From NCBI GenBank assembly GCA_006226565.1, contig SBGO01000334.1, positions 359 to 64,358 of the forward strand: a stretch of DNA of 64,000 nucleotides, in the 5' to 3' direction. The notes below the pieces were generated by a model. It searched no databases. It was not told where the DNA came from and saw only the letters and a program-made list of their open reading frames with translations. The stretch's first letter is position 1. The number at the start of each line of letters is the position of its first letter. Shown here one piece after another: positions 20,905 through 52,000 of this stretch. The DNA is from Deltaproteobacteria bacterium. GTDB taxonomy: Bacteria > Myxococcota_A > UBA9042 > PHBI01. Position numbers and translations under genes: made by a program.

Positions 20905-20908
<4 letters not shown>

Positions 20909-24573: not shown

Positions 24574-24595
24574 AAACGAAGATTTTGGAGGAGAG

Positions 24596-34668: not shown

Positions 34669-34782
34669 CGCGGAATCTCCATGCTCGTCATTCCCCCACC
34701 GACGCTGTGCGCCCACGAAAACGCAGTCACGGTGGACCAGCGAGGTCGCATTGACAAGGCGGGTAGGCGACGCGAGATGCTT

Positions 34783-34794
34783 GGTGCAGGCACC
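34783..34794. promoter_or_regulatory. inverted repeat GGTGC-AG-GCACC upstream of the activator gene; TTGACA lies at 34751-34756
   Basis: Read directly. It sits in the 138-bp divergent region between the minus-strand gene 32812..34668 and the regulator gene, 13 nt upstream of the regulator's ATG. Confidence 0.3.
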
Positions 34795-34806
34795 GGCGAG
34801 GGTTCG

Positions 34807-36465
34807 ATGGACACCACGATCGCGAGCACCCAGCGTTCACCCGTACTCCTGACGTGGCTGGCGACACGCAACGACCCCTACGAGCGAGACAAGTCCGGGG
34901 GCGCGTTCAAGGAGCCGCGCGTCTGGGGACCGACCTTGACGCTCATGGCCGACCCGGAATCTCCATACAAAGGGCGCATCGACGACGTCGTCGTCTTCCG
35001 CCAGGCCGGACCCAAGGCGGCGGACCACACGCGCGTCTACGAGGAGCTCGTCGCGGCCCTCGAGGAGCACGAGATGGCGCCGCGCCTCCACCCGGTCCTC
35101 TGGGACCACGACGACCCGACCGACCACGCCGCGATCTACGACTTCCTCCGGACGGAGGTCCCTCGCATCCGCCGTCAGTTTCGAGACCGCGAGCTGGTCA
35201 TTCACCTCTCGCCCGGCACGGCGTCCATGCACACAGTCTGGGTGCTGATGTGCGAGACCGGCTTCATTTCCCAGCCGTTCACCGCCGTGCAGTCCCTACG
35301 CCCCGGTGAACGTCGCGGCCGCGCGCCGGTCAACGCGCTCCGGCTCGGCGTCGACACCTTTTTCAAGCGCTGGCAGGAGACCAAGCCCGCCGCCGCGAGA
35401 CTCGATGACCACCAATCCCTCTGGGATCCGTCGCAGTTCCGCTCGACCAAGATGCGCGCCCTCTACGACGAAGCCCGGCGCGCCGCCCGCCTCAAGATCC
35501 CCGTCCTCATCCTCGGCGAGCGCGGGACCGGCAAGACCACCCTCGCCTCCTGGATCCGCCTCAAGAGCCCGTTCCGCAAGTCCGCGCTCGACTCGGCCTG
35601 GCCCGCCGTCCCCTGCGGGCAGTACACGAACGAGACGATGCGAGCCGAGCTCTTCGGCTACAGAAAAGGCGCCTTCACGGGCGCCACGACGCACAAGGCG
35701 GGGCTCCTCGCCGAGGCGAGCGGCGACACCCTCTTCCTCGACGAGATCGGCGACGTCTCGAAGGACCTCCAGCGCCTCCTCATCAAGGTCCTCGAGGATG
35801 GCACCTTCCAGCCTGTCGGCAGCACCAAGGTAGAGCGGACCGACGTCCGACTTCTCACCGCCACCAACCTCCCCGACAACGAGCTCCGCGGGCGCCTCGA
35901 CGCCGACTTCCTCGACCGCATCAGCGCCTTCACCCTCACCGTCCCGCCGCTGCGAGAGATCCCCGACGAGCTCGAGTGGCTCTGGCCGAACGTCCTCGAC
36001 GAGGCCGCGCGCCGCGCCGCCGCGCCGACCCGGTATGCCCAGCTCCCGAAGCGCCACCACGCCCGCTTTGTCTCGGCGCTCCAACGGCACCCGCTCCCGG
36101 GCAACATTCGCGACCTCTTTCGCGTCGCTTGGCGCTTCCTCGCCGCCCGCGCCGACGACGACGCCCCGCTCAACGTCGAAGACGCCGTCGACTACGCGCT
36201 CGCCGCGATCGACCGTGATGCGGCGCCGGATGGCTCGTCGCGCACCATCGCCCGCGCCTTCGCCGACATGGAGCCCCTCCCTCCATCCCTCGTCGCCGAA
36301 ACGCCCCTCGACCCCAACCGCGTCATCGACGACTTCAAAGCCTGGTTCGCCGCCGAGGCCCGCGCGCTCGGGCAGCGAACCGGCCAACCGCTGGGTGACC
36401 TCGTGACCGTGACGGACCGGACGCTGAGGAACTGGCGGAAGGATGATTCCGAGGCGCCGGAATAG
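34807..36465 (+). CDS. RtcR-like sigma54-dependent transcriptional activator (bacterial enhancer-binding protein): CARF-like N-terminal sensor domain plus AAA+ sigma54-interaction domain
   Basis: ORF 34681..36465; ATG at 34807 (MDTTIASTQRSPVLLTWLATR). The AAA+ core has VLILGERGTGKT (Walker A), AELFGYRKGAFTGA (the GAFTGA sigma54-contact motif) and LFLDEIGD (Walker B). The N-terminal block ELVIHLSPGTASMHTVWVLMCETGFISQPFTAVQ closely matches the RtcR CARF segment (from memory YLVHITTGTHVAQICLFLLTESRHFPARLVQ). No clear C-terminal HTH was seen. Confidence 0.75.
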   Translation: MDTTIASTQRSPVLLTWLATRNDPYERDKSGGAFKEPRVWGPTLTLMADPESPYKGRIDDVVVFRQAGPKAADHTRVYEELVAALEEHEMAPRLHPVLWDHDDPTDHAAIYDFLRTEVPRIRRQFRDRELVIHLSPGTASMHTVWVLMCETGFISQPFTAVQSLRPGERRGRAPVNALRLGVDTFFKRWQETKPAAARLDDHQSLWDPSQFRSTKMRALYDEARRAARLKIPVLILGERGTGKTTLASWIRLKSPFRKSALDSAWPAVPCGQYTNETMRAELFGYRKGAFTGATTHKAGLLAEASGDTLFLDEIGDVSKDLQRLLIKVLEDGTFQPVGSTKVERTDVRLLTATNLPDNELRGRLDADFLDRISAFTLTVPPLREIPDELEWLWPNVLDEAARRAAAPTRYAQLPKRHHARFVSALQRHPLPGNIRDLFRVAWRFLAARADDDAPLNVEDAVDYALAAIDRDAAPDGSSRTIARAFADMEPLPPSLVAETPLDPNRVIDDFKAWFAAEARALGQRTGQPLGDLVTVTDRTLRNWRKDDSEAPE

Positions 36466-36558: not shown

Positions 36559-36574
36559 TGGCCCACGGCTTGCG
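36559..36574 (+). promoter_or_regulatory. sigma54 (RpoN) -24/-12 promoter: TGGCCC-ACGGC-TTGCG
   Basis: It matches TGGCAC-N5-TTGCW with correct GG-to-GC spacing (11 nt). The predicted TSS is about 36586, 27 nt before the first ATG of the downstream operon (36613) and directly downstream of the sigma54 activator gene. Confidence 0.6.
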
Positions 36575-36612: not shown

Positions 36613-36909
36613 ATGCAAGCGACGCTCAGCCTGACGCATCACGCCGCGTACCGCGCCCGCACGCGCAGCATCCCCGCCGAGGCGCTCGACGCGGCCATGA
36701 CGTTCGGGCGCCACCGCGCGGTCCGCAACGCCGACATCTACACCCTCGGCTGGCGTGAGGTCCGGGCGCTCGCCGCCCGCGGCATCGACGTCGCCCGCTG
36801 GGAGGGCGTCGAGGTCGTCTGCTCGCACGACGGCGACGTCCTCACGACCTACCGCAACACCAACGCTCGCGCGCTCCGCCGGCCCTACGGCGTCCGCCGC
36901 GCGGCGTGA
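36613..36909 (+). CDS. small DUF4258-like protein, first gene of the sigma54 operon
   Basis: ORF 36613..36909 (98 aa). LTHHAAYRARTRSIPAEALDAAMTFG resembles the DUF4258 H-A-x-x-R-x-x-x-R-x-I core. This assignment is tentative. Confidence 0.4.
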   Translation: MQATLSLTHHAAYRARTRSIPAEALDAAMTFGRHRAVRNADIYTLGWREVRALAARGIDVARWEGVEVVCSHDGDVLTTYRNTNARALRRPYGVRRAA

Positions 36910-37655
36910 TCCAGCCGCTCGCGCGGTCGGTGTTGCGAACCGACCGCGCGAGCCTCTCCAACGCGAACGTGCAAATCAGCCCAACCACAACGGAGTACCG
37001 CCTCATGGCCGGATTCAAAGACTTCACGACCCAGACCGCGCGCCCCCTCCCCGTCATCATCCTCGCCGACGTGTCCGGCAGCATGGAGGGCGGCGGCAAG
37101 ATCCAGGCGCTCAACCACGCCCTCCGCGAGATGCTCGAGGCCTTCTCGGACGAGTCGGACCTCCGCGCGGAGATCCACGTCGCCGTCCTCACCTTCGGCG
37201 GCACGGCCAAGGTCCACATCCCGCTCGCCACCTCCGCGAAGGTCCGCTGGAACGACCTCGGCGCCGGCGGGGGGACCCCGATGGGGCAGGCGTTCGAGCT
37301 GACCCGCGCGATGGTCGAGGACCGCGCCACCATCCCGGGCCGCGCGTACCGGCCGACCCTGGTCCTGCTGTCGGACGGCCAGCCGACCGACGCCTGGCAG
37401 CAGCCCCTCGCCGCGCTCCTCGGCAGCGAGCGCGCCAGCAAGGCATTCCGCATGGCCCTCGCCATCGGGGAGGACGCCGATCGTACGGTCCTCGCGGCCT
37501 TCCTCGCCAACCCCGAGGCGCGCGTCTTCGAGGCGCACGAGGCGCGCCAGATTCGAGACTTCTTCCAGCTCGTCACGATGAGCGTCTCGAGCCGGTCGCG
37601 GAGCGCCAACCCGAACGCCACCCCCGCCCTCCCCTTCGCCGGCTACGATGTCTGA
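36906..37655 (+). CDS. von Willebrand factor A (vWA) domain protein
   Basis: ORF 36906..37655. The GTG start overlaps the upstream stop (GTGA); an alternative ATG lies at 37005. MIDAS motifs are VIILADVSGSMEG, GGGTPMGQA and LLSDGQPTD. Confidence 0.7.
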   Translation: MIQPLARSVLRTDRASLSNANVQISPTTTEYRLMAGFKDFTTQTARPLPVIILADVSGSMEGGGKIQALNHALREMLEAFSDESDLRAEIHVAVLTFGGTAKVHIPLATSAKVRWNDLGAGGGTPMGQAFELTRAMVEDRATIPGRAYRPTLVLLSDGQPTDAWQQPLAALLGSERASKAFRMALAIGEDADRTVLAAFLANPEARVFEAHEARQIRDFFQLVTMSVSSRSRSANPNATPALPFAGYDV

Positions 37656-38346
37656 GACGCGCGTCACCGGCTGCTCCGTGCGCGGCCCCGCCCACGTTCG
37701 CGACGGCTCGCCCGGGCAGGACGCCTGGTCGGCCGTCGCGGAGCCCGTCGCCTTCGCCGTCGCGTGCGACGGGATGGGGAGCCGCCCCCTCGCCCACGAG
37801 GGAGCCCGCGCCGCGACTCGGGCAGCGCTGCGGGCGTGGCGTCTGTGGCGTCGGTCGAACGCAGGCAGCCCCGAAGATCTCGTGCGCCTCATCGAGGTCC
37901 TGTGGCGTCTCGACCTCGGCGGGATCGCCCCCGCCGAGGCCTGCACGACGTGCCTCGTCTACGCCGAGGACCTCCACGGCCGGGCCGTGGTCGCACAGCT
38001 CGGCGACGGGCTCATCGTGCGACGCTCGCCGGACGGCGCTGTCACGACACATCCATCGCGGAAGCTCGACTTCGGGACCACCCACGCGCTCGGCGCCCCG
38101 CACACCCTCGCGGACTGGTCCTTGGCCGTCGCCCCGCCGCTCGCGCCGGGAGAGTCGCTGCTCCTCGCGACCGACGGCGTCTCCGAGGACCTCCTCCGCG
38201 ATCGGCTCGACGGCCTCATGCGCTGGCTCCACGCCGAGCTCGACAGCCGGCGGGCCCCCCATCACTGGCTCCGCCGGGAGCTCCACCGCTGGCCGGTCGC
38301 TCACCACGGCGACGACAAGACCCTCGTCATGCTGAGGAGATCATGA
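37648..38346 (+). CDS. PP2C-family Ser/Thr protein phosphatase
   Basis: ORF 37648..38346 overlaps the vWA gene by 8 nt. PP2C motifs are VACDGMGS, LLLATDGVSE and DDKTLVML. Confidence 0.75.
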   Translation: MSETRVTGCSVRGPAHVRDGSPGQDAWSAVAEPVAFAVACDGMGSRPLAHEGARAATRAALRAWRLWRRSNAGSPEDLVRLIEVLWRLDLGGIAPAEACTTCLVYAEDLHGRAVVAQLGDGLIVRRSPDGAVTTHPSRKLDFGTTHALGAPHTLADWSLAVAPPLAPGESLLLATDGVSEDLLRDRLDGLMRWLHAELDSRRAPHHWLRRELHRWPVAHHGDDKTLVMLRRS

Positions 38347-39683
38347 AACGCGAACACCGAGTCGTCATCGACGAGAACGGCACCCGCTACAGCCTGACGA
38401 ACCGCATCGGCAGAGGCGGTCAGGGTGAGGTCTGGCGGACCGACAGCGCCCACCGAATCGTCAAGCTCCAGACGAGCTCCCAGAACCCAGAGGTCACGCG
38501 GCGGCAGTTCGTCTTCGTGCGACGGCTCGATCTGCGCGGGCTCCACGTCGCCAAGCCCATCGCCGTCCTCGCCCCGCCGGCGGTCGGCTACGTCGCGGAG
38601 TTCCTGAGCGACATGACGCCCATTCGAACGCTGATGGAAGCCCCCGCCGAGGACCTCGTCGCGTGGCACGTCAGAACCGGAGGCCTGCGCCGCCGGCTCC
38701 GCCTCCTCGCTCACGCCGGCGAGACGCTCGTGGCGCTCCACGGTCGCGGCATCGTCTATGCGGATGTGTCCGACAACAACGTCTTCGTCTCGGAGCCCGT
38801 CGACGCGAGCGAGGCGTGGCTCATCGACCTCGACAACCTCAGCTACGCCAGCGATCCCCAACGCGCGGTCTACACGCCCGGCTACGGCGCCCCCGAGGTC
38901 GTCGCCCGGCGGGCCGGCTGCACCTCCCTCTCCGACGCGTGGGCCTTCGCCGTCCTCGTGTGGCGCGTCCTTACCCTCGGCCACCCTTTCGTCGGCGACT
39001 GGGTCGACGAAGGCGAGCCGGAGCTCGAAGACCAGGCGATGGCCGGCGAGCTGCCGTGGGTCGAGTGCGAGGACGACGACCGCAACCACTGCTCGACCGG
39101 TCTCCCCCCCGAGGTCACCGTGGGAAACCTGCTCCTCGGGCTCGCGCGCCGGACCTTCGAAGCCGGCCGCAGCGACCTGCGGGCGCGCCCCGGGCTGTCG
39201 GAGTGGGTCCACGCGCTCCACGCGACCGCCGACCAGACCCTGACCTGCCACGAGTGTACGGCGACCTACCTCGCGTCGGCGCCGGAGTGCCCGTGGTGCG
39301 AGGCGCAGCGGACCGAAGAGCTCCCGCTCAGGCTCGTCCGCTGGGACCCGGACCACGGCGTCGTCCGCTCTGCGGTCGCGCTCCGGCCGGTGCCGGTCAC
39401 CACCTTCCGCACCACCTTGACGCGCCGCACGACGGAGGGCGCGAGCGGCCTCATGGGCCGGGAGCCGCACGTCGAGCTCGCGCTCGTCGGGCGCGGCGTG
39501 ACCGTCCACGCCGCCGCAGGCCGCTCCGTGTGGGTCGGCCGACTCGATCGCTCCTCGGGGAAGCTCGTCGAGCGCCACGACGCCTCGTCTCGTCCCCGCA
39601 TCGTGCCGCGCAGCGGCTGGGTCATCTTCTTCGACGACCCGGCGAGGCCGCAGCGCGTCGGCCTGCTCGGAGGTGCCGCGTGA
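38343..39683 (+). CDS. Hanks-type Ser/Thr protein kinase with a C-terminal zinc-ribbon region
   Basis: This is the C-terminal 446 codons of ORF 37764..39683. The ATG at 38343 overlaps the PP2C stop (ATGA). Kinase motifs are GRGGQGEVW (Gly loop), IVKL (Lys), YADVSDNNV (catalytic loop), DLD (DFG-like) and YGAPE (APE). CHEC...CPWC forms a zinc ribbon. Confidence 0.8.
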   Translation: MKREHRVVIDENGTRYSLTNRIGRGGQGEVWRTDSAHRIVKLQTSSQNPEVTRRQFVFVRRLDLRGLHVAKPIAVLAPPAVGYVAEFLSDMTPIRTLMEAPAEDLVAWHVRTGGLRRRLRLLAHAGETLVALHGRGIVYADVSDNNVFVSEPVDASEAWLIDLDNLSYASDPQRAVYTPGYGAPEVVARRAGCTSLSDAWAFAVLVWRVLTLGHPFVGDWVDEGEPELEDQAMAGELPWVECEDDDRNHCSTGLPPEVTVGNLLLGLARRTFEAGRSDLRARPGLSEWVHALHATADQTLTCHECTATYLASAPECPWCEAQRTEELPLRLVRWDPDHGVVRSAVALRPVPVTTFRTTLTRRTTEGASGLMGREPHVELALVGRGVTVHAAAGRSVWVGRLDRSSGKLVERHDASSRPRIVPRSGWVIFFDDPARPQRVGLLGGAA

Positions 39684-42600
39684 AGATCCACGAAGTCACC
39701 AGCGGCGTCGCCGCGACCCTGCGCGTCACCAACCCGGAGGGCGCCTTCAGCCCGCCGCCCGCGACCGGCGATGAGCTGGTCCTGGTCTCGTCCTCCGATC
39801 AGATCCTCGCCCGCGCCGGCGACCTGGTCTGGCCCGTTCGAGGCACCACGCCGCTGGATCACGACGCGCTCGTTCGCGTGGTCGACGGCGCCGGTCCGTT
39901 CGTCGCATTCGTCGCCCGCTGTGTGGACGACACCATGGTCGTCGAGACGCGACGCTTCCGATCCGAGGTTCGGCTCGGTGAGCCGCTCGACATCGGCCTC
40001 GACGACAAGGCCCTCGACGACCTGCGCCGTACCACCCGTCGCGGCGGCAGCGTCGTCGACATCGTGCGGTGGCTATCGGAGCAGTTGCTGCTCCCACCGA
40101 TCCCCGGAGGGCCCTCCGAGCTCGCCCGCTTCGTGGTCGCAGGCGACCTGCGCGACCGGCCGGACGTCTTCCGCATCTACGGCCGCAGGCTGGCCGTCGA
40201 CGTGCGCCGTGCGGATGGGAAGCTCCGGGTCGAGCGCGCGGCCCGCGGCGCGACGCCCGGGAGGGAGCCGCTGACGCTGATGCTCGCCCCGGTGAGGTTC
40301 GTGGACGCGACCCTGACGGCGGAGCTCACGACGGAGGCCCGAGCCGCGCTCGAGCAGGCGGTGGCCGACGCTGGCAGCTACCTCGCGATGTGGGAGCACT
40401 TCCACGCGCTCGACGTCGCGACCACGGAGCAGCAGGCCCGAGCCTTCGGCGCGGTGGAGTACACCTCGCGGAAGCAGGGCCCCGAGCGCGGCTGGACCTT
40501 TCGCCTCGTGAAGGACGAGTCCCTCGCCGAGCGACTCGCCGTGCTCGCCGACGGCCACGGCGTGACACTCGAGGTCGGCGAGCGCGCACCGTCCTTCGAC
40601 GGCACCGGGAGGCCGAGGCGGAAGGAAGAGGGTCAGAAAGTCCCCTTCTCCAGCCACGTCACCCACCTCGACGCCGGCAAGGGGCGACTCGATCTCGCGC
40701 CGGCCGACGATGAGGCTGCAGCACCACCAGAGAAGGGCTTCCTGTTCATCGCGCGCGCTGGCGATCGGACGCGTCAGGCCCGGCGCGAGCGCGCCGAGGA
40801 GGCGCTCCGAAACGGGACCTGCCCGATGCCCCAGCTCGGCCTCCTGATGGAAGGGCGGCCCGCCCCGGCCGCTCGCCTGCCGCGGCGACCCGCGATGAGC
40901 CCCGCCGTCCGGGCGCTGTTCGGCCCCGACGGGCCCACCCAGCGACAGCGCGAGGCCATCGAGCGCGCACTGAACACGCCCGACGTCTGCCTCATCCAGG
41001 GGCCCCCGGGCACCGGCAAGACCAAGGTCATCACCGCTATCGAGGCCCGCGTCGCGGAGCTGGCCGACGAGGGCCTCGAGGTCTCGCACCGCGTCCTCGT
41101 CACCGCGGCCCAGCACGACGCCGTCGAGAACGTCGCCCAACGGACCGACGTCTTCGGCCTGCCGGCCGTCAAGATCGGCCGGCGACGAGGCGACGACGGC
41201 GACGGCGAGGACGCCGTCGATCGGTTCCGCGAGGACCGCATCGACGCGCTGCGTGCCAAGCTCCGCGTCCCCCCCGAGGCCGAGCGGCTCGCGAAGGCGC
41301 GCGCGATGGCGGTAGCCTGCATGCGCACCCGCGCGCTCCCCGACGCCCAGGCGCGACGCGTCCGCGAGATCGCGTCCACGCTCGACGGCCTGCTCCCCCC
41401 GGCGCTCGTGGACCGCGCGCTGGACCGCGCGGCCAGCCTGGAGTCGCGCTCGGACGCCGGAGACCCGGAGCAGCGCGAGCTCGAGCTGCGCGCCGCCCGC
41501 GGGATCCGCGTCACCCCCGGCCCATTCTCCGATGACGGCCCGCTCCAGGCCGCCAAGGCGCTGCGGCGCCTCGACGACCGACTGACGCCCGACGAGCGCG
41601 CCTACCTCGAGCGCTGCGCTCAGGTCGAGCAGGATGTGGCGCCCGATTGGATCGATGCCGGTGCGCCGCTCCGTGACGCGCTCATCGACCGCCTCTCCTC
41701 GGCCGCGACGCCGACCGAGGCGCGCCTCGACGACGACACCCAGCGGCTCCTCCTCACGCTCCTCGACGCCGTGGACCACCGCTACGCAAGCGCCGAACTC
41801 GGAGACGGCGCCGCGATCGCCGGCTTCATGCGAGACCTCGAGGGCGACCCCGAGGGCGTCCGCGAGATGCTCCAGCACTACACCGTCGTCCTCGCGGCGA
41901 CGCTCCAGCAGGCTGCCGGGCGCCGCATGATGGCGGCGCGCGGTCTCACCAGCGGTAGCGCCGAGTTCGAGACCGTGATCGTCGACGAAGCCGCGCGAGC
42001 CCACCCCCTCGACCTGTTCATCCCGCTCAGCATGGCGAAGCGGCGCGTCGTCCTCGTCGGCGACCACCGCCAGCTCCCCCACCTGCTCGAGCCCGATGTC
42101 GAGCGTCAGCTCGCCGACGGCGTGGAGTCCGGCAGCGTCGGCCAGGAGGTCCTCGAGGCGGTGCAGGCCAGCCTCTTCCAGCGGCTCTGGGAGTCGCTGC
42201 GACACCTCGAGAAGCAGGACGGGATCAAGCGAACCGTGACGCTCGACGTTCAGTACCGGATGCATCCGGTCCTCGGCGACTTCATCAGCCGAACCTTCTA
42301 CGAGCACCACGGCGACGGGCGCGTCGAGAGTCCGCGCCCCGCGGGCGACCTGGCCCACCAGCTCCCGGAGTATCTGCGGGACGGCGAGGGTGTCCCAGCG
42401 GCGTGGCTCGACGTACCGGCCCACACAGGCGCGGAGGTGCCTGGGCGCAGCAAGCGGCGGCCCGCCGAGGCGAAGACGATGGCGCGCGAGGTGCGCCGCC
42501 TGGTCGACGCGGATCCGACGCTTACTTTCGGCGTCATCGCCTTCTACGCCGGACAGGTCGACGAGATTGGTGAGGCGATGCTCAAGGAGGGGCTCACCGA

Positions 42601-42961
42601 GCGGACCCACGACGGGCGCGGCTGGGAAGTCGCCGCGGGCTACCGAACGACGGTCGACGCGGACGGACGGCGCGTCGAGCGGCTGCGCGTCGGGACCGTG
42701 GACGCCTTCCAGGGCCGAGAGTTCGACGTCGTGCTGTTGTCCGTGACCCGCTCCAACACGCTCCCCGGCGCCACGCCCGAGCAGCAGCGCCGGAAGTACG
42801 GGCACCTGATGCTCGACAACCGCCTCTGTGTCGCGATGAGCCGACAAAAGCGGTTGCTAATCGCCGTCGGCGACCTCTCTTTCGTGCGTGAGGCCGAGCC
42901 GCTGCGCGCGCTGCGGGAGCTTGCCCGACTCTGTGGAGGAAGCCATGGCGTCATTCGATAA
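39680..42961 (+). CDS. SF1 Upf1/DNA2-like helicase with an about 500-aa N-terminal domain of unknown function
   Basis: This is the C-terminal 1093 codons of ORF 38663..42961. The GTG at 39680 overlaps the kinase stop (GTGA) and is preceded by GGAGG. Helicase motifs are CLIQGPPGTGKTKV (I), TVIVDEAARA (II), VLVGDHRQLP (III), YRMHP (IV), VDAFQGREFDVVLLS (V) and VAMSRQKRLL (VI). Confidence 0.8.
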   Translation: MKIHEVTSGVAATLRVTNPEGAFSPPPATGDELVLVSSSDQILARAGDLVWPVRGTTPLDHDALVRVVDGAGPFVAFVARCVDDTMVVETRRFRSEVRLGEPLDIGLDDKALDDLRRTTRRGGSVVDIVRWLSEQLLLPPIPGGPSELARFVVAGDLRDRPDVFRIYGRRLAVDVRRADGKLRVERAARGATPGREPLTLMLAPVRFVDATLTAELTTEARAALEQAVADAGSYLAMWEHFHALDVATTEQQARAFGAVEYTSRKQGPERGWTFRLVKDESLAERLAVLADGHGVTLEVGERAPSFDGTGRPRRKEEGQKVPFSSHVTHLDAGKGRLDLAPADDEAAAPPEKGFLFIARAGDRTRQARRERAEEALRNGTCPMPQLGLLMEGRPAPAARLPRRPAMSPAVRALFGPDGPTQRQREAIERALNTPDVCLIQGPPGTGKTKVITAIEARVAELADEGLEVSHRVLVTAAQHDAVENVAQRTDVFGLPAVKIGRRRGDDGDGEDAVDRFREDRIDALRAKLRVPPEAERLAKARAMAVACMRTRALPDAQARRVREIASTLDGLLPPALVDRALDRAASLESRSDAGDPEQRELELRAARGIRVTPGPFSDDGPLQAAKALRRLDDRLTPDERAYLERCAQVEQDVAPDWIDAGAPLRDALIDRLSSAATPTEARLDDDTQRLLLTLLDAVDHRYASAELGDGAAIAGFMRDLEGDPEGVREMLQHYTVVLAATLQQAAGRRMMAARGLTSGSAEFETVIVDEAARAHPLDLFIPLSMAKRRVVLVGDHRQLPHLLEPDVERQLADGVESGSVGQEVLEAVQASLFQRLWESLRHLEKQDGIKRTVTLDVQYRMHPVLGDFISRTFYEHHGDGRVESPRPAGDLAHQLPEYLRDGEGVPAAWLDVPAHTGAEVPGRSKRRPAEAKTMAREVRRLVDADPTLTFGVIAFYAGQVDEIGEAMLKEGLTERTHDGRGWEVAAGYRTTVDADGRRVERLRVGTVDAFQGREFDVVLLSVTRSNTLPGATPEQQRRKYGHLMLDNRLCVAMSRQKRLLIAVGDLSFVREAEPLRALRELARLCGGSHGVIR

Positions 42962-44405
42962 AGACACTCCGGTGCTTCGCTTCACGAAGCTGCGGAAGCC
43001 GGACGTGCGGTGGGTCCTCTGGCCCGTCCTGGCGTGGCGCGTGGTCGCGCCCGTGCCCCAAGGGCGCCGGTTGAACCTGCTCCAGAAGGCCGCGCTCGGG
43101 TTGGTGCGTGCCGGTGTGACGACGGCGCAAGATGTGTCGGAGCGGCTCCTGATCCTGCCCGACCTCGCGGCCCTCGTGCTCACCGAGCTGCAGGGGATGC
43201 GCCTCGTCGACGAGCTCGGCGCGCTGACACCGAGGGGCGCCGAGCTCGTCGACGAGCTCGACGTCGACCCGCCCGAGGCCCTCGAGGTCGGACACGTCCT
43301 CGCCGATCCGTTCACAGGCAGCCTCTGGCCGCGGCTCTTGACCGGGGACCTCCCGCTGGCGGAGGTCGAGCAGAACGACCAGGGGTGGCCGGTGCTCCTG
43401 AGCGGAAGTCCGGGCGCCCCCTGGCGCGACCATGCCTTCTGCGTGCTGCCGCGACGCGACGACGCCGTGGTCATCGCGCGTCCCGGGGCGAAGGACATCC
43501 TGAGGGCGGCGCGGCGCGGCCGGCGCGTGGCGCAAGCGATGGGCGACGCCGCCCCGGCGCTCCGGCTCGTCTCGTTCATCGACGAGCGGCCGGAGCCCTA
43601 TCTCGCCGCGCTCCCGGTGGTCTCGCACGCCTCGGGCGACTGGATCGTCCTCGATCCCTTCGGCGGCGGCGCGTCCTTCGAGCTGCGCCGGCAGGTCGAG
43701 CGACGCCTCGACGTGCAGCCCGGACTCCGTGCCTGGCTCGCACCGCTCGTGGGGGGCGACGTCGTCGAGGCGACCACCGCGGAGCTCCAGCGACGCGCGG
43801 CGTGGGAGGTCGAGGAGCAGCTGACGCTGGGCGTACGCCGCTTCGCGGGCGTCCACGACCACCTGGTGGCGATGCAGCGAGCGTGGCTCGAGGCGCAGGC
43901 GTGGGAGTCCCCTGACGACAAGGTCGACGACGTGCTCGTCAAGGCGCAGCGCGCGGTGGAAGCGACGATTCGCGAGGTCCTGCGCGGGCACTCCGATCCT
44001 GACGAGCGCCTCTACCTGCAGCTCGCCCCTTCCCACGTGAAGGGATATCAGCGCCAGAACCGCGGCCTCCTGGACGACATCGCTGCTGGGCTCGGCTTCG
44101 CCTCGCCGCTACCGACACAGCTCTCCGGTGTGAAGCCCGGCAAGGTCCAGAGCGCCGAGCAGAGCCTGCGCGGGAGCCTCCGACCGCTGCTGCTCGCCAC
44201 GCTGCTCGCCGCGGACCGGAACGACCGGCACCCACTGCGGCGTTCCGCCAGCGCCTGTCCTGACCTGCTCGAGCGCCTCGACGCCCTGGCCTCCGCCCGC
44301 GACCGCGCCGCCCATGACGGCGACGGCGCGTGGCCCGAGCGCCTCCCCGTACACCTCGAGACGACCTACGACATCGTTCGACACCTCCTGCTCCACAACG
44401 CCTGA
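42945..44405 (+). CDS. hypothetical protein (486 aa)
   Basis: ORF 42888..44405. ATG at 42945 (MASFDKDTPV) is preceded by GGAGGAAG and overlaps the helicase 3' end by 17 nt. No motif was recognised. Confidence 0.5.
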   Translation: MASFDKDTPVLRFTKLRKPDVRWVLWPVLAWRVVAPVPQGRRLNLLQKAALGLVRAGVTTAQDVSERLLILPDLAALVLTELQGMRLVDELGALTPRGAELVDELDVDPPEALEVGHVLADPFTGSLWPRLLTGDLPLAEVEQNDQGWPVLLSGSPGAPWRDHAFCVLPRRDDAVVIARPGAKDILRAARRGRRVAQAMGDAAPALRLVSFIDERPEPYLAALPVVSHASGDWIVLDPFGGGASFELRRQVERRLDVQPGLRAWLAPLVGGDVVEATTAELQRRAAWEVEEQLTLGVRRFAGVHDHLVAMQRAWLEAQAWESPDDKVDDVLVKAQRAVEATIREVLRGHSDPDERLYLQLAPSHVKGYQRQNRGLLDDIAAGLGFASPLPTQLSGVKPGKVQSAEQSLRGSLRPLLLATLLAADRNDRHPLRRSASACPDLLERLDALASARDRAAHDGDGAWPERLPVHLETTYDIVRHLLLHNA

Positions 44406-44433
44406 AGCTCCATCTCTCCAAGGAAAGACCGAC

Positions 44434-46962
44434 ATGACCAAGCCGCGCAAGCACCCGAAGTCCCGTCCGCAGCCCAGCCCGAAGAGCGCCGAGAAGAGCG
44501 CGTCGACCGAAGAGGTCGCCGAGGTCGAGACGATCGAGGCAGAGGCAGCCGCCCTGACCGGGTCGCTCGGCGCCCCCCCTGCGCCCGCGGAGCCGCAGAG
44601 CACCGACGTCGCGCTCGGCACGCTGGTGGCCCGCGCTGCGAAGGCCCTCGAGGAGCTCAAGGGGCACCTCGCCACGGCGAAGACGACCCGCGACGCAGCC
44701 GAGCGCCGGGCCAGGCAGGTCGCGGAGGAGGCGGACGCGTTGCAGGCCGAGCGGACCGCGCTCGAGGAGGCTCGACGCGCCGCCGAGTCTCGGGACGCCA
44801 GCCTCGCCGAGCGCGAGGCGTCCGTCGTGGCGCGGGAGCTCGACGCCGAGCGCGGATTCCTCGCGCACAAGGCGGAGATCCTCGGGGGCCTCGAGGCGGA
44901 CGTGAGCGCGCTCCGCGCCCAGCGCACGGCGCTCGCCGACGAGCTGCGGGGGCGCCGAGAGAGCGCGGAGGAGGAGGCGCGCAAGAAGGTGGAGGCGCAC
45001 GAGCGCAAGTGGGCCGACGCGCAGAAGAAGCGGAGCGAGCACGCGGCGAAGGCGCGCCTGGAGCTCGACGAGGCGCTCGCTCGCGACCGTGAGACCGGCC
45101 TCGCCGAGACCCGCAAGAAGCTCCAGGAGGAGCGAGAGCGGGTGCGTGCAACCCTGGACGCGGAGCGGTCAGCCCTCGATGCGGAGATCATGGCACGGCA
45201 CGGCGCGCTGCAGGCCCACTCGGACGCCCTCGACACGCGCGAGCGGGAGCTTCGGATCACCGAGCGTGACCTCCTCGTCGATCAGGACCTCATGAAAGAG
45301 GAGCGCGAGGCCCTCGACAAGAAGGTCGCCCGCCTCGTGGCGGAGTCGACCGAGCAGCTCCGGCACGAGCTCGCGAGCGCGACCACGCTGCTGAAGGAGG
45401 CGCGGGCTCAGCGTGATGGCTACTGGGCCGACCTCGAGGCCCGACGCGAGCTGGACCGCCGCTTCGGCGGACGAACGCCCGAGGAGATCCTGGCCCACCT
45501 CCAGCACGTCGAGCGGGAGCGTGACGAGCTGACGCGCCAGCTCCGCGAGCGCCCCGACGAGCGCGCGGCGACGCGGCTCGCCAACCTCGAGCGCGAGCGC
45601 TCCGACTGGCACGACCAGCGCGCGAGCCTCGAGGTGGATCTCGCCAACGCGCGCTCCGAGCTGAGCACCCGGCGCATCGCGGCCATCGAGCTCGAGGGCC
45701 TGCGGCGGGAGAAGGAGGCCCTGCGCACGACGAACGCGCTGCTCGACCAGGCGCTCTCCGAGCTCGACGCCAAGGTCACGGAGCTCACCCACCAGGACGA
45801 CAAGCGCAACCCGATGACCGCCCTCACGGCCCTGGACGCCGACGAGGTTCTCCAGCTGCCGCGTCGCACGGTCGCGCCGCTGCACGGCGCAACGCCGGAC
45901 CTGCGCGCGTTCGCGGAGGATCTGCGTCACCGCATCGCCCATGGTGTCGAGGGGCGGACCCTCTACTACACGGCGGAGGACATCCGAGCGTTCCTCGGCG
46001 GCCTCGCGATGACGCAGCTCATGCTCCTCCAGGGCATCTCCGGGACGGGGAAGACGAGCCTGCCGCTCGCCTTCGCGAGCGCGGTCGGGGGCGACGTGGA
46101 GGTCGTCGAGGTGCAGGCGGGCTGGCGCGACCGACAGGACCTGGTCGGCTACTACAACGCCTTCCACAAGCACTACTACGCGACGAGCTTCCTGCAGGCG
46201 CTCTACCGGGCGGGCACGCCGGCGAACAAGGACCGCGTCTTCCTGATGGTCCTCGACGAGATCAACCTGTCCCGGCCCGAGCAGTTCTTCGCCGACTTCC
46301 TGTCCGCGCTGGAGCAGCCGACGGAGAAGCGCCGCCTCACGCTGGTCAACGACCCGATCACGGCCGCGCCGAAGCTCCTCGTGGACGGTCGCCACTTGCC
46401 GATCCCGCCGAACGTGTGGTTCGTCGGGACGGCCAACCACGACGAGACGACCGTGGCGTTCGCGGACAAGACCTACGATCGGGCCCACGTCATGGAGATG
46501 CCGCGGAACACCGACGCAGCGCGCTTCGAGGTCGAGCACAAGAACGGCCGCGGCACCATCTCGCACCAGGGGCTCATCGACGCCTTCGCCGCCGCCGCGG
46601 CCAAGCGGAGCAACGAGGTCGAGCACGCGACGCAGTGGCTGCGCCAGGCGCCGTTCGCCGAGACCCTCGGGCGTCGCTTCCGGGTCGGCTGGGGCAACCG
46701 CCTCGAGCAGCAGCTGGGGCGCTACCTCCCCGTCATCGTCGAAGCCGGGGGCAGCGTGGGTGAGGCGATGGATCACCTCCTCGTGACGAAGGTCTTCCGC
46801 AAGCTCGCGGACCGGCATGACGTGCGGGCGGAGGCGCTCGGCACCCTCAAGGACGAGCTCCTCACGACCTGGCTGGACCTCGACAAAGCTCACGGCCCCG
46901 AGCGCTGCGCGGCGCTCCTCGACCGCGAGATCGAGGCGAAGCTGGGGGAGGATCTGGCTTGA
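44434..46962 (+). CDS. McrB-like AAA+ GTPase/ATPase with an about 480-aa N-terminal coiled-coil region
   Basis: ORF 44314..46962. ATG at 44434 (MTKPRKHPK) is preceded by AAGGAAAG. The AAA region has LLQGISGTGKTS (Walker A), LMVLDEINLSRPEQFFADFLSALE (a McrB-type DEIN...F..L..LE Walker B plus sensor) and FVGTANHDE. The upstream half is highly charged (heptad-like ER/EA/AL repeats). Confidence 0.65.
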   Translation: MTKPRKHPKSRPQPSPKSAEKSASTEEVAEVETIEAEAAALTGSLGAPPAPAEPQSTDVALGTLVARAAKALEELKGHLATAKTTRDAAERRARQVAEEADALQAERTALEEARRAAESRDASLAEREASVVARELDAERGFLAHKAEILGGLEADVSALRAQRTALADELRGRRESAEEEARKKVEAHERKWADAQKKRSEHAAKARLELDEALARDRETGLAETRKKLQEERERVRATLDAERSALDAEIMARHGALQAHSDALDTRERELRITERDLLVDQDLMKEEREALDKKVARLVAESTEQLRHELASATTLLKEARAQRDGYWADLEARRELDRRFGGRTPEEILAHLQHVERERDELTRQLRERPDERAATRLANLERERSDWHDQRASLEVDLANARSELSTRRIAAIELEGLRREKEALRTTNALLDQALSELDAKVTELTHQDDKRNPMTALTALDADEVLQLPRRTVAPLHGATPDLRAFAEDLRHRIAHGVEGRTLYYTAEDIRAFLGGLAMTQLMLLQGISGTGKTSLPLAFASAVGGDVEVVEVQAGWRDRQDLVGYYNAFHKHYYATSFLQALYRAGTPANKDRVFLMVLDEINLSRPEQFFADFLSALEQPTEKRRLTLVNDPITAAPKLLVDGRHLPIPPNVWFVGTANHDETTVAFADKTYDRAHVMEMPRNTDAARFEVEHKNGRGTISHQGLIDAFAAAAAKRSNEVEHATQWLRQAPFAETLGRRFRVGWGNRLEQQLGRYLPVIVEAGGSVGEAMDHLLVTKVFRKLADRHDVRAEALGTLKDELLTTWLDLDKAHGPERCAALLDREIEAKLGEDLA

Positions 46963-48968
46963 AGCTGCGCCCTCGACTCGCGCTCCCTTCCGCGCCGAAT
47001 GAGCCCCCTCCGAGGGCGCTGCTCTGCGACGCCTGGACGATCCACGGGCAGCGAACCAGCGGCGAGGCCGGCGCCTACCCGGGGCCGGTCGTCGGGAACT
47101 GGCCGGACGACCTGGAGACCGACGCCGCGCAGCGGCTCTCCGAAGCCGTCGGGAGCGAAGCCGGCTGGGAGACGCTCGCGGCGACCCCGGCGATCGCGCG
47201 GAAGCTCAGCGAGCGAGCGCGGCTGCAGCCGCTCGACCGCGAGCTCCTTCGCCACCTCCATCATCTGCAGGAGGTCTGTCATCGCCCACGCCTCCACCTG
47301 CGCGTGGAGGACGAGCGTCTTCCCGTGGCGCGCGCGCGGCGATGGCCCACCCGGGCCGTGGCGGACCTCGTGTCCCACCCCGGAGACTGGGAACACCGCA
47401 CGCTGCGAAGCGTGCAGCCGCGACGCATCTTGGCGCGACAGATCGAGGACGAGTGGAACCTGTACGAGAACCGCGTGGCGGTCCGCCTCGTCGACCGGCT
47501 CCTCACCTATCTCGCGCGTCGGATCGAGGAGCTTCGGCGCATCGAGACGACGATGGCGCAGCGACGCGACCAGGGCGATCACACCAAGTCGTCACGGTGG
47601 CGCGTCCACCGCATCATGACGGCCTGGGCCGAGAGCCTCGACGCCGACACCGAGCACGCGCTGAGCGACACCCAGCGCGCGCTTGCGCACGCGCAGCAGA
47701 AACTCCAGGCCCTGACCGACACCCCCCTCTACCGGCACATCCCGCTGCGGGCGACGGTCCCGCTGGCGCTCCAGCAGACGAACATCCTTTCCAACGACGC
47801 CCACTATCGCAAGGTCGCCGCGTTGTGGCGCGCGTGGTCCCGGCACGGCTACAAGAAGCCGGAGACGCGGCTTCAGCGCGAGCGTCGGCGCCAAGAGGAG
47901 GCGCACGCGTGGGACCGCTTCGTGCTGCACCTGGTCGCGCGCGCAGCGACAGCGCTGGGCTGGACTGCGAGCGGCGACGCGCCCGCGTGGCGGCTGGAGA
48001 AACCCGGAGCGACAGACGTGACGGTGGAGGTCTCCGAATCCGGAGCCGTGACGCTGCACGCGGGGGGGGCGGGCCGACTCGCCTTGGTGCCGCTCTGCGC
48101 CGTGCTCGAGTTTGCCGATGCGCAGGCCGTCGACGCTGCGCTCCAGCCCTGGAGTGACAGTGAGGTCGAGGTCGTCGGGATTCACGTCGGCGGCGTGGCC
48201 GGCAAGGTCGACGCGGACCGGGCGACGGGCTGGCGGTTCGGCGACCACGCTGTCCTCCTCCCGGCATCGCCGTGGGCGATCGACTCGGAGGAGCGTATGG
48301 CGCGGCTCCTCAATGGCTGGTTGGCCCGTCACGCGAGCCCGACGTACCCGGTCCACGTGGAGGCGCGAGCGCTCCCGCAGCCGCCTCCCTGGGAGTGGTT
48401 GATCAAGAACGATCAACACATTGTCGCGCTGCGCGCTCCGACACGACGCGAGCACCAAGACGCCACGACGTGGTGCCAGCGAGAGCAAACGAAGCTCGAG
48501 CGCGCCGCGGAGCAGGCACGAGCGGCCAAGCAGGCGTTCTCTCGCGCACCGCTCACCGCGATCGGCGTGTTGAGCGACCTGATCCACACCGCCGCCCGGC
48601 TCGAGGACCTCGCGTCGTGCCCGGTGTGTGGTGGACGCGGTCACGTCCACCCGCGCCCCGGCCGCGCACCTGACGGGAGCGACGCGACGTGGTGGGCGAG
48701 CTGTCCCGGCTGCGGCGCCGAGTGGGGCCTGCGTGCCTGCACCACCTGCGGTGACCGCTTTCCGGTCCTCTTCCCCCATCTCAGCCAAGAGACTCGGGCG
48801 AGCCTGGAAGGCCTCGCCGCTGCCGACTGGCCGGACCGCGCGCTCGGCGCGGATGCCTGGGCACAGCCGTGCCGCGGCGACTTCCCTCGACACGCCCGCT
48901 GCCCGACCTGCGGCAGCTGTTCGAGCGGCGAATGCCGACACTGCTCAGCGCCACCGGGAGGGCACTAA
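46959..48968 (+). CDS. Cys-rich partner protein of the McrB-like ATPase (possibly McrC/DUF2357-like N-terminus; several C-terminal CxxC zinc ribbons)
   Basis: ORF 46959..48968; the TTG start overlaps the upstream stop. The C-terminal CPVCGG...CPGCGAEW...CTTCGD...CPTCGSCSSGECRHC gives at least four CxxC pairs. I could not find a convincing PD-(D/E)xK motif. Confidence 0.45.
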   Translation: MKLRPRLALPSAPNEPPPRALLCDAWTIHGQRTSGEAGAYPGPVVGNWPDDLETDAAQRLSEAVGSEAGWETLAATPAIARKLSERARLQPLDRELLRHLHHLQEVCHRPRLHLRVEDERLPVARARRWPTRAVADLVSHPGDWEHRTLRSVQPRRILARQIEDEWNLYENRVAVRLVDRLLTYLARRIEELRRIETTMAQRRDQGDHTKSSRWRVHRIMTAWAESLDADTEHALSDTQRALAHAQQKLQALTDTPLYRHIPLRATVPLALQQTNILSNDAHYRKVAALWRAWSRHGYKKPETRLQRERRRQEEAHAWDRFVLHLVARAATALGWTASGDAPAWRLEKPGATDVTVEVSESGAVTLHAGGAGRLALVPLCAVLEFADAQAVDAALQPWSDSEVEVVGIHVGGVAGKVDADRATGWRFGDHAVLLPASPWAIDSEERMARLLNGWLARHASPTYPVHVEARALPQPPPWEWLIKNDQHIVALRAPTRREHQDATTWCQREQTKLERAAEQARAAKQAFSRAPLTAIGVLSDLIHTAARLEDLASCPVCGGRGHVHPRPGRAPDGSDATWWASCPGCGAEWGLRACTTCGDRFPVLFPHLSQETRASLEGLAAADWPDRALGADAWAQPCRGDFPRHARCPTCGSCSSGECRHCSAPPGGH

Positions 48969-49077: not shown

Positions 49078-52000
49078 GTGTCGCTGAAGCCAGGTTTGTA
49101 CGACCTTCCCGTGACCCGCGCGGTCGCTCGCGCCCTCGAATCGCTCGCGGTCGAGCTCAGGCAGGTCGAAGACGTCGAAGCTGACGAGCTGCCGCTCATG
49201 CTCGCCCGACACCTTCAGCGTCGCCTGGTCCATGCGTTCGGCGCAATTCCCCGGGACGAGCGAAGCACCGAGGCCGTCGAACTCGCAAATCGCCTCCTCG
49301 CAGACGTTCAGGAGCGGTGGCCGCGCGCCGGGCACGACGCAGAGGACGAGGTCGTAGCGCCTGCGCGCAAGCTCCTCGCCGTCGCGGCACCGGCGATTGT
49401 GCCCCACGTCCCGGAGCGCCCCGCCATCCCCCTCGCGACGAGCGACCTGCTCGTCAACGGCCACATGGACAAGGCGGTCGGCCCCGAGCTGCGCCGCGAG
49501 CTCGCCTCCGCCGACCGCGTGGACCTCCTCTGCTCGTTCATCAAGTGGTCGGGCCTTCGTCTCCTCGAAGACGCGCTGAAGGAGCTGCTCGCGCGCCGCC
49601 CGCGCAGCCTCCGCGTCCTGACGACCGCGTACATGAGCGCGACCGAGCGCCGCGCCCTCGACGCTCTGGTAGCGCTTGGTGCCGATGTCCGCGTCTCATA
49701 CGACACGGCGCGGACGCGCCTGCACGCCAAGGCGTGGCTCCTGCATCGCGAGAGCGGCTTCTCGACCGCCTTCGTCGGCTCGTCGAACCTATCGGCCGCC
49801 GCGCTGCTCGATGGCCTCGAGTGGAACGTCCGCCTCTCCCAGGTCGATAACGGCCCCATCCTCGAGAAGTTCGAGGCGACCTTCGACCAGTACTGGGGCG
49901 ACACCGAGTTTCAGCCCTACGACCCGACTACCTTCGACGCCGCGCTCGTGACGGAGCCCGCGGGGCCCACCCCGTCGCTGCTCATGCTCGACATCGAGCC
50001 ACGTCCCCACCAACAGGAGATCCTCGACGCCCTCGCCGCCGAGCGGACGCACGGCCACCACCGAAACCTCGTCGTGGCGGCGACCGGCACCGGCAAGACC
50101 ATCGTCGCCGCGCTCGACTATCGACGCCTCCGACGCGAGCTCCCTCGCGCGCGGCTCCTCTTCGTCGCCCACCGCGAGGAGATCCTCACCCAGAGCTTGC
50201 TCCTCTTCCGCGTCGCCCTCCGCGACGGCGCGTTCGGCGAGCTCCTCGTCGGCCGCGACCACGCCGCACGATGGGACCACGTCTTTGCATCGATCCAGTC
50301 GCTCCACGCGGACCGGCTCGCCGACCTGCCCAGGGACCAATTCGACGTCGTCATCGTCGACGAGTTCCACCACGCCGCCGCGGACACCTACACGCGCCTC
50401 CTCGAGCACTTCACGCCGCGCGTGCTGCTGGGTCTGACGGCGACCCCCGAGCGCGCTGACGGCCGCTCGGTGCTCGGCTGGTTCGACGGCCGCGTCGCCT
50501 CGGAGCTCCGGCTGTGGAAGGCGCTCGATCAGGGCCTCTTGAGCCCCTTCCACTACTTTGGCGTCGGCGGCGCGCCGGACATCAGCTCCGAGCGCCTGTG
50601 GGTCCGCGGCCGCTACGACCTTTCCAAGCTCGCCAACGTCTACACGGCCAACCACGTCTTCGCGCTCCGCGTCCTCCAGGAGGTCGAGCACAAGGTCACG
50701 GACATCGGGAAGATGCGCGCGCTCGGCTTCTGCGTGGACATCGCCCACGCCGAGTTCATGGCCGAGCAGTTCGGCAAGCGCGGCGTTCCTTCGCTGGCGG
50801 TCAGCGCCAAGACGTCTAAGTCGGGCCGCCGAGGCGCGCTCGAGGCGCTGCGAGACGGCACGATTCGCGTGCTGTTCACCGTCGACCTCTTCAACGAGGG
50901 CGTCGACCTCCCCGACGTCGACACCGTCATCTTCCTCCGCCCCACCGACAGCGCGACCGTGTTTCTCCAGCAGCTCGGTCGAGGGCTGCGACGATCGCGT
51001 GACAAGGCGTGCTTGACGGTGCTCGACTTCATCGGTAACGCGCATCGCCGCTTCCGCTTCGACACGCGCTTTCGCGCCATCGTCGGCGGCACCCGCCGCG
51101 GGGTGCGGGAGCAGGTTGAGCAGGGATTCCCGTCACTTCCAAGTGGCTGCAACATCCAGCTCGACCGCGAGGCGACGCGCGCGGTCCTCGACAATATCAA
51201 GCACGCGCTCGGCCTCGGTCGCCGCGGGCTCGTCGACGACCTGCGTCAACTGACCCAAGAACGGGGAAACGTCGATCTGGACACATTCCTACGCGAGTCG
51301 GGCGTAGACCTCGAGGACCTCTACACGTCGAAGAGCGGCGGATGGTGCTTCACCCGACTCAGACGGGAAGCGGGCGTCATCCCTGCCCCCGGCGACGGCG
51401 ACGCTGACGCCGAGCGCAACGAGCAGGTCGAGCGTGCCTACGGCCGCCTGCTGCACCTCGACGATAGCTGGCGACTCGAAGGGCTGCGGCGACTCCTCGC
51501 TCATGCCATCCCACCGTCAGCCGATCCGAGCGATGCGCTCCAGCGAGCCCTCTTCGTGTACCTCGGCGACATGCGCCGCCCGTTGACCGAGATGCAGAGC
51601 GCTTTCGACCACCTCTGGCGAAACGCCGACCTTCTCGATGAGCTCCGGCAATTGTTGGCGCTGCTCTACGACCGCACTCGGCGACTGACGACGCCGCTCT
51701 TCGGCGGCGGGCTCGACGCGCCGCTACAAGTCCATGCGACCTACAGCCTCGACGAGGTGATGGCGCTGGTGGACGAGCGCAACAGCAAGGGCGGCATTCA
51801 GCGCATTCAGACGGGCGTCTACTACCTCGAGGCGGCACGAACCGACTTGTTCTTCGTCACGCGCGAGAAGAGCGAGAAGCACTACACCCCGACGACGCTC
51901 TACAAGGACTATCCGCTGAGCACGCGACGGTTTCATTGGGAGAGCCAGTCCACCTGCCACGCGGGAACAAAGACGGGGCGACGCTACACGACGCTGGCCC

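Follow-up and report, generated by a model that had tools for sequence, protein, structure and literature searches.

A gene pair at the end of a conserved operon

The stretch of DNA analysed here, referred to as the window, comprises 64,000 nucleotides (nt) of contig SBGO01000334.1 (positions 359 to 64,358, forward strand) from the metagenome-assembled genome (MAG) 'Deltaproteobacteria bacterium' (assembly GCA_006226565.1). At positions 44434-48968 it encodes an McrB-like NTPase and a cysteine-rich, McrC-like partner, designated CnuB and CnuC here in anticipation of their very probable membership, argued below, of an RtcR-associated Type II CoCoNuT (coiled-coil nuclease tandem). The coordinates of the two open reading frames (ORFs), their TTGA overlap and the 669-aa length of the partner are as an initial annotation, made from the sequence alone, had reported. 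That annotation was also right to describe the pair as McrBC-like and distinct from a classic modified-cytosine restriction enzyme, but it missed the surrounding conserved operon with its UPF1-like helicase and RxxxxH protein: the locus is no isolated McrBC-like oddity, as CnuB and CnuC are encoded by the last two genes of this operon (Table 1).

The operon spans positions 36613-48968 on the forward strand and is tightly packed, its eight genes running from a small ORF to CnuC with junctions that consist of overlaps of 4, 8, 4, 4, 20 and 4 nt and a single 28-nt gap; a gene for an RtcR-like activator precedes it. Long spurious ORFs are abundant in the window because of its G+C content of about 72%, and the real frames were therefore picked by the GC content of the third codon position (GC3 frame plots). 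All operon reading frames are intact and carry a strong GC3 coding signal, which backs the frames of both CnuB and CnuC. A 1432-aa ORF at 38663-42961 was considered as one gene and rejected, since a switch of the GC3 frame and the translations resolve it into the kinase gene and the helicase gene, joined by a GTGA overlap; the gene for the TerY-like VWA protein likewise overlaps the small ORF by GTGA. Scans for a terminator and a sigma-70 promoter downstream of CnuC, and for tRNA genes in the window, found none.

The cassette recurs in three related loci. In Nannocystis sp. RBIL2 and Bradymonadaceae TMQ3 the gene order from the VWA protein to CnuC is kept; these two loci begin inside the VWA gene, with the RtcR-like gene and the small ORF outside their coverage. 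The third, on a MAG contig (L005), is the sole related locus retrieved by scanning a genome collection with the kinase as query, and in it all nine genes recur at 50-69% protein identity, including the regulator (67% identical, at the same position) and the small ORF. The TerY-P triad (VWA protein, PP2C phosphatase and kinase) is kept in all three, and synteny stops directly after CnuC. The overlap of the CnuB and CnuC genes is also found in orthologous loci (4 nt and 1 nt). The two products are identical to EP329_08955 and EP329_08960 of the same MAG, which NCBI labels hypothetical, and their relatives occur in Nannocystis, Archangium, Corallococcus, Kofleriaceae, Polyangiaceae, Bradymonadaceae and, in a few cases, other phyla.

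CnuB and its cysteine-rich partner CnuC

The CnuB gene starts at an ATG (44434) preceded by a GGAAAG ribosome-binding site, 28 nt past the previous stop, and its TGA ends at 46962. The AAA+ core contains GISGTGKT (residues 534-541), DEIN (608-611) followed by F619, L623 and L626-E627, and GTANHDE (665-671). The initial annotation had picked out all three signatures (GxxGTGKT, DEIN and GTANHDE); its spacing of six residues between DEIN and the phenylalanine is in fact seven, counted to the F that gives x3-L. Residues G534, G537, G539, D608, E609, N611, N668, D670 and E671 are invariant in 30 CnuB homologues, down to 22% identity. The GTANHDE motif had been called McrB-type; it is present, but as a shortened NxD variant of the sensor-1 signature (N668-H-D670-E671) and not as the canonical NxxD. 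N668 aligns with the asparagine of the NTAD motif of E. coli McrB, and E671 stands at the position of the aspartate of NxxD.

The N-terminal half of CnuB contains no DNA-reader, CSD or YTH domain, whether judged by Pfam or by the AlphaFold2 model (mean predicted local distance difference test score (pLDDT) 78). Residues 1-61 are rich in Lys, Pro and Ser and modelled with low confidence, as in a disordered N-terminus. They are followed by a region (62-454) in which Ala, Glu, Arg and Leu make up 62% of the residues, only 2 of the 393 residues are Pro, and the model places helices at 62-344, 349-368 and 377-454. The figure of about 480 charged residues that the initial annotation gave for the replacement of the DNA reader is therefore roughly right. 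Its 'heptad-like repeats' are a fair description insofar as the region is long, charged and of the coiled-coil type, and the CnuB family profile also matches known coiled coils such as dynactin CC1; the signal of the heptads themselves is modest, the hydrophobic occupancy of the a/d positions being 0.629 against 0.580 +/- 0.019 in shuffled sequences.

CnuC starts at a TTG (46959) that overlaps the TGA of CnuB (46959-46962), with GGAGG 7 nt upstream; NCBI places the start two codons later, giving 667 aa. The protein belongs to a family of 863 clusters at 50% identity (E <= 0.001). In its AlphaFold2 model (pLDDT 83.6, predicted template modelling score (pTM) 0.83) a small N-terminal strand region is followed by a helical bundle with a match to DUF2357, an alpha/beta domain (335-495), two long helices and Cys-rich strands (554-662). 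The Arg-rich segment 115-163 is modelled at a pLDDT below 50, yet it is among the most conserved stretches of the protein, with invariant residues from R120 to P154; by analogy with McrBC structures (PMC11090510), it may be a 'finger' that enters the CnuB ring.

The alpha/beta domain is a candidate for an inactivated PD-(D/E)xK fold, judging from the model. The initial annotation had found no PD-(D/E)xK motif in the partner, which agrees with the wider survey: Pfam PD-(D/E)xK families match none of 34 close and 54 distant CnuC homologues (88 relatives in all), and at the candidate catalytic positions the 54 relatives have no conserved Asp, Lys or (D/E)xK. After the strand L374-R-x-V-P378, the place of Asp is taken by Leu, Val or Ile. 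In the same 54 sequences E445 of this central domain is invariant and R449 nearly so. No relative came from searching the PDB, be it by Foldseek with the CnuC model (nothing significant) or by sequence and by profile (no matches), nor from an hhalign comparison of the CnuC family with E. coli McrC; no Hsp70-like domain was matched among the CnuC relatives either.

The C-terminal part carries a cluster of CxxC motifs, as had been noted, although five pairs are counted where four had been claimed: CPVC (554), CPGC (582), CTTC (594), CPTC (648) and CRHC (659), together with the lone cysteines C638 and C654. Their conservation is given in Table 1.

Table 1. Coordinates and supporting evidence for the regulator, the operon genes and the features of CnuB and CnuC (positions are those of the window)
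Feature	Position	Strand	Evidence
RtcR-like regulator (CARF, sigma-54-interaction AAA+, helix-turn-helix (HTH))	34681..36465	+	Pfam Sigma54_activat 2.6e-40; PADLOC RtcR_PspF1--CARF_AAA_HTH 3.3e-142, full profile covered
Sigma-54-type promoter-like site TGGCCC-N5-TTGC (-24/-12)	36559..36573	+	40 nt upstream of first operon gene
Small ORF, 98 aa, first operon gene	36613..36909	+	62% identity in L005
TerY-like VWA protein (TerY-P triad 1/3)	36906..37655	+	Pfam VWA_2 1.1e-13; PADLOC TerY 0.0011
PP2C phosphatase (TerY-P triad 2/3)	37648..38346	+	Pfam PP2C_2 1.3e-26
Ser/Thr kinase with C-terminal CxxC...CxxC zinc ribbon (TerY-P triad 3/3)	38343..39683	+	Pfam Pkinase 9.2e-11; CHEC...CPWC
CnuH-like UPF1-type superfamily 1 (SF1) helicase, 1093 aa	39680..42961	+	Pfam AAA_11 9.1e-31, AAA_12 5.9e-32; PADLOC MkoA 7.9e-87
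CnuE-like protein, 487 aa	42942..44405	+	Weak N-terminal wHTH-PRTase_assc (E 0.0088); C-terminal R453-x4-H458 (HEPN-type motif)
CnuB, McrB-like NTPase, 842 aa	44434..46962	+	Motifs, profiles, homologue alignment, AlphaFold2 model
CnuB residues 62-454, long charged helical (coiled-coil-type) region	44617..45795	+	AlphaFold2 helices, composition, profile matches
CnuB AAA+ core	46033..46446	+	Walker A 534-541, Walker B DEIN 608-611, N668-H-D670-E671
CnuC, McrC-like partner, 669 aa	46959..48968	+	DUF2357 family matches, Cys motifs, AlphaFold2 model
CnuC residues 101-203, DUF2357 (McrC N-terminal) match	47259..47567	+	Pfam
CnuC residues 335-495, alpha/beta domain	47961..48443	+	Strands and helices in AlphaFold2 model, pLDDT near 90
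CnuC residues 554-662, Cys cluster / zinc ribbons	48618..48944	+	Conserved Cys
CnuC C554, C557, C582, C585			Invariant in 54 CnuC sequences
CnuC C594, C597, C648, C651			Nearly invariant in 54 CnuC sequences
CnuC C638, C654, C659, C662			C638, C654 invariant and C659, C662 nearly so in 34 close CnuC homologues (alignment A1)

Probable assignment to the Type II CoCoNuTs and alternative readings

CoCoNuTs are a branch of the McrBC-type Type IV restriction systems that was predicted computationally by Bell, Sahakyan, Makarova, Wolf and Koonin (eLife 2024, PMC11090510). Their traits are a GTPase signature NxD, usually followed by E or D, a long coiled-coil fusion, and an McrC homologue that is often nuclease-inactive (PMC11090510). 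In Type II, CnuB has a coiled coil alone at its N-terminus and no helical insert between Walker B and NxD, and the operon includes the TerY-P triad. Type II CnuC combines DUF2357, an inactivated PD-(D/E)xK domain, CPxC zinc ribbons and an immunoglobulin (Ig)-like N-terminus, and is without an Hsp70-like domain. CnuH is UPF1-like, with a helical insertion after Walker A, an SmpB-like OB fold and a RelE-like domain, and CnuE consists of an elongated winged HTH (wHTH) and one RxxxxH HEPN domain; the loci often have an RtcR-like CARF regulator at their 5' end and other restriction systems nearby (PMC11090510).

In view of the close agreement with this description, the two genes very probably encode the CnuB and CnuC of an RtcR-associated Type II CoCoNuT. 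The set and order of genes, the RtcR-like activator, the TerY-P triad, the overlapping frames and the nearby restriction genes are shared, as are the coiled-coil-only CnuB with NxD(E) and the CnuC with a DUF2357 match, CPxC motifs and no catalytic PD-(D/E)xK residues. In the regulator, residues 1-253 give weak Pfam matches to CARF and RtcR. The CnuH insertion is seen in the helicase, the start of which is the GTGA overlap with the kinase gene: past Walker A, about 240 inserted residues divide its AAA_11 match into two parts (421-491 and 728-800). The CnuE-like gene, whose first 20 nt also belong to the helicase gene, encodes R453-DRAA-H458 as the single RxxxxH of the protein, and ARD(R/H)AAHD is kept in three orthologues. 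The HEPN-type motif of this neighbouring protein would explain the 'missing' nuclease of CnuC.

Several observations weigh against this assignment. Residues 1-420 of the helicase match no family, where SmpB-like and RelE-like (RTL) domains are reported for Type II CnuH. The DUF2357 match of CnuC itself, a search for which the initial annotation had proposed, is weak and below the cutoff (E 0.0022, 17.7 bits against a Pfam gathering threshold of 23.3); among the relatives, 30 of the 34 close and 43 of the 54 distant ones match the domain, the strongest at E 1e-9. The model of the CnuC N-terminus has few short strands in residues 1-50, and an Ig-like domain is not evident in it. A comparison of hidden Markov model (HMM) profiles between the CnuC family of the window and a Type I-A-like CnuC aligned the zinc ribbon alone, and weakly. 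Finally, no experimental work on Type I-III CoCoNuTs was found in the literature searched.

The differences from the published Type II systems concern details. The paper stresses Pseudomonadota and Bacillota as hosts, whereas the host of the window belongs to a high-GC Myxococcota-like lineage. Many Type II CnuC proteins are reduced to two CPxC motifs, whereas the clade of the window keeps three CPxC, CTTC and an extra Cys group (C638, C654, C659, C662), and the N-terminal Ig-like domain of its CnuC is at most vestigial in the model. The small ORF, which matches no Pfam or PADLOC family and has no detectable similarity to BrnT, sits between the RtcR-like gene and TerY. On present evidence the Myxococcota-type host, the extra Cys group and an N-terminal beta domain that is vestigial at most are too minor to define a new variant; the locus adds one more example to a kind of system that has already been published and was defined by computation.

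Type I-A CoCoNuTs (for example Rhizobium TBC54486.1) resemble the present system in the AAA+ core of CnuB, which is 34-41% identical and has NxDE; by BLAST, window CnuB is 34% identical (E 2e-25) to a Type I-A CnuB from the supplement of Bell et al. They differ in that Type I-A comprises two genes, whereas the pair of the window is the end of a nine-gene system, and in that about 80 aa of helical insert lie between Walker B and NxD in Type I-A CnuB; the two motifs are about 140 residues apart in one such protein, compared with 60 residues and no insert in window CnuB. As a Type I-A-like CnuC we used that of a Sphingopyxis macrogoltabida plasmid (NZ_CP009431; L006), found by tblastn with a partial sequence from the supplement. 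It shares with window CnuC a match to DUF2357 and the zinc-ribbon layout C-x2-C...W-x2-C-x2-C...C-x2-C, and it retains a readable IYERW...RPDF...MDAKF; in place of the nuclease motifs RPDF...MDAKF, window CnuC has VPL and strands without Lys. This mapping of the dead-nuclease residues comes from a side-by-side reading of the two sequences, because the profile comparison aligned only the zinc ribbon.

Compared with E. coli and Thermococcus McrBC, the window likewise has an AAA+ NTPase and an overlapping partner gene, and Walker A, Walker B and the sensor Asn align. Instead of NxxD and a small DNA-reader domain, CnuB has NxD and a helical region of about 390 aa, and where the McrC proteins have an active PD-(D/E)xK site CnuC has none. 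Similarity to Mokosh, in which the best PADLOC match of CnuH is MkoA (7.9e-87) and the N-terminus of CnuE weakly matches MkoB (0.0018), is limited to the helicase core and the wHTH-like stretch, and Mokosh is without an McrBC-type module or a TerY-P triad; these matches hint at a helicase/wHTH-effector module that may be shared between Mokosh and the cnuHE pair (39680-44405). CnuB also matches PDC-M26A of the PADLOC candidate system PDC-M26 (5.6e-41, residues 358-637), while no PADLOC model matches CnuC, and no paper describing PDC-M26 was found in the literature searched. A 2025 preprint has reclassified Druantia I/II as 'Type IV CoCoNuT'.

Could the pair work alone, as an autonomous McrBC-like enzyme that cuts DNA through a non-canonical or zinc-dependent site in CnuC, with the neighbouring genes belonging to separate systems? 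The overlap of the two genes is that of classical mcrBC, the Type I-A and I-C CoCoNuTs consist of CnuB and CnuC only (PMC11090510), and the invariant E445, the nearly invariant R449 and the conserved cysteines could form some site. We nevertheless consider it unlikely, given that the genes from VWA to CnuE accompany the pair in the same order and with overlapping frames in all three related loci examined, and that the RtcR-like gene and the small ORF recur as well in the one locus reaching that far. Furthermore, no acidic residue or Lys is conserved at the PD-(D/E)xK positions, CnuB has no DNA-reader domain, and a HEPN-type motif is supplied by the adjacent CnuE gene. Activity of CnuC within a Type II CoCoNuT is a separate matter: E445, R449, the retained acidic D319 of the first helix and the extra Cys group C638/C654/C659/C662 of the close homologues might together form a non-canonical catalytic or ligand-sensing site, a proposal to which we give little credence. 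If true, CnuC would be more than a passive binder, and the CnuBC module in this Myxococcota-type clade would have its own activity, unlike that of the published Type II description.

Still less probable is that the AAA+ protein is a MoxR/dynein-type chaperone ATPase, and no McrB-type NTPase, partnering the VWA protein of the operon in the style of RavA-ViaA or NorQ-NorD. MoxR proteins also have DEIN...LE and the sensor Asn, the operon includes a VWA gene, the only Pfam match of CnuB is to AAA_5 (E 2e-5), the 'dynein-related' family, and in the Foldseek search with the CnuB model NorQ is the best match (1.1e-6), with dynein and MCM also among the best and T. gammatolerans McrB in 35th place (8.3e-5). 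Since such a fold search cannot separate AAA+ clades, the McrB assignment rests on sequence profiles and the partner gene. The family profile of CnuB aligns by hhalign with residues 176-343 of E. coli McrB (score 90.8, P 97%, E 5e-11) better than with the MoxR protein RavA (score 42.2, P 46%, E 2e-4). A single-sequence PDB search returned McrB chains alone at E <= 1, and the family-profile search found E. coli McrB over the AAA+ core (533-693; E 0.0011); the other profile matches at E <= 1 cover the Walker A region alone (Lon, RuvB-like and proteasome ATPases) or the coiled coil, and MoxR-family chains are absent from both searches. Moreover, the gene overlapping that of CnuB encodes a protein with a DUF2357 match and not the VWA protein, the VWA gene lies five genes upstream within the VWA-PP2C-kinase triad, and CnuB is 34% identical to a published CnuB. 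By its sequence profiles the AAA+ domain of CnuB is thus McrB-like and closer to McrB than to MoxR. The initial annotation had named a MoxR- or dynein-like AAA region and a complete McrC nuclease domain as findings that would contradict it; neither is found, the partner being without a catalytic D...(D/E)xK. A decayed or inactive CoCoNuT remnant, with a BC module that no longer functions, is equally hard to credit in spite of the absent catalytic residues of CnuC and the MAG source, as the frames are intact with a strong GC3 signal, the NTPase motifs of CnuB are invariant in homologues, the conserved residues across the 863 clusters of the CnuC family point to purifying selection, and the 'dead' state of CnuC is the norm of its family (PMC11090510).

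Predicted regulation and mechanism, and neighbourhood

The spacer that separates the regulator gene from the small ORF contains TGGCCCACGGCTTGC (36559-36573), a sequence departing from the sigma-54 consensus TGGCAC-N5-TTGC at one position. This site is among just three one-mismatch matches in the 64-kb window and the sole one in this intergenic region. L005 has a single one-mismatch match (2508-2522), which lines up with it in the equivalent spacer, the rest of which is poorly conserved. The site may function as a promoter. Activation of the downstream genes by the RtcR-like protein is proposed in the CoCoNuT paper, which, in the sections considered, points to no sigma-54 promoter sequence (PMC11090510).

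The mechanism proposed here largely follows Bell et al. 2024 (PMC11090510), with the promoter observation added in this analysis. The CARF domain of the activator would sense a signal of infection or RNA damage, for example RNA ends with a 2',3'-cyclic phosphate, and the activator would then turn on the sigma-54 promoter, leading to transcription of the operon with its eight genes. Activity may be gated by a phosphorylation switch made up of the kinase, phosphatase and VWA proteins. CnuB is predicted to form an AAA+ ring, which the conserved Arg-rich segment of CnuC would enter to stimulate NTP hydrolysis, as McrC does for McrB, while the long helices of CnuB could serve as a scaffold holding the CnuH-CnuE pair. 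The dead nuclease domain and the zinc ribbons of CnuC would bind nucleic acid rather than cut it. Cleavage would fall to CnuE as a HEPN-type RNase, resulting in the degradation of viral RNA or, if the infection persists, in growth arrest.

Downstream, a gene on the forward strand (49078-52197, likely start GTG 49078, 109 nt past CnuC) encodes a PLD / SF2 helicase / DUF3427 protein (PADLOC mREase_IV, 3e-257). None of the three related loci has it, which marks it as a Type IV restriction gene in its own right that adjoins the CoCoNuT. Convergent with it, and overlapping its 3' end by 20 nt, is a gene on the reverse strand (52178-56581) outside the conserved cassette, the 1467-aa product of which is an unusual fusion of HIT, a PLD nuclease, an SF2 helicase (ResIII/Helicase_C) and an S24 (LexA-type) peptidase. 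On the other side, divergent from the RtcR-like gene, two reverse-strand genes (30750-32762 and 32812-34716; 670 and 634 aa) have a good coding signal and no Pfam or PADLOC match. The remainder of the window resembles a defence island (5465-10321 and 16865-24417 on the reverse strand, 24455-26815 and 27454-28539 on the forward strand); its contents are a 1618-aa type IIG restriction-modification or DrmMI-like methylase-nuclease, a UvrD/RecB-like and RecC-like pair, a winged-helix and double-AAA protein with IetA-like matches (2.4e-50), and a small AAA_5 protein.

The locus is a small addition as a discovery, since its architecture, its nuclease-dead partner and the NxD motif have all been published, and it is not to be counted as a new type of system. 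Its practical value lies in the correct annotation of two proteins that NCBI calls 'hypothetical'. Cultured relatives (Nannocystis, Archangium, Corallococcus, Bradymonadaceae) carry homologues of CnuB and/or CnuC. The window offers a complete example on a single strand, with its regulator and a recognisable sigma-54 promoter-like site, which makes it a reasonable candidate for cloning, from a large family whose members have been proposed to derive from McrBC and to act on RNA rather than on DNA.

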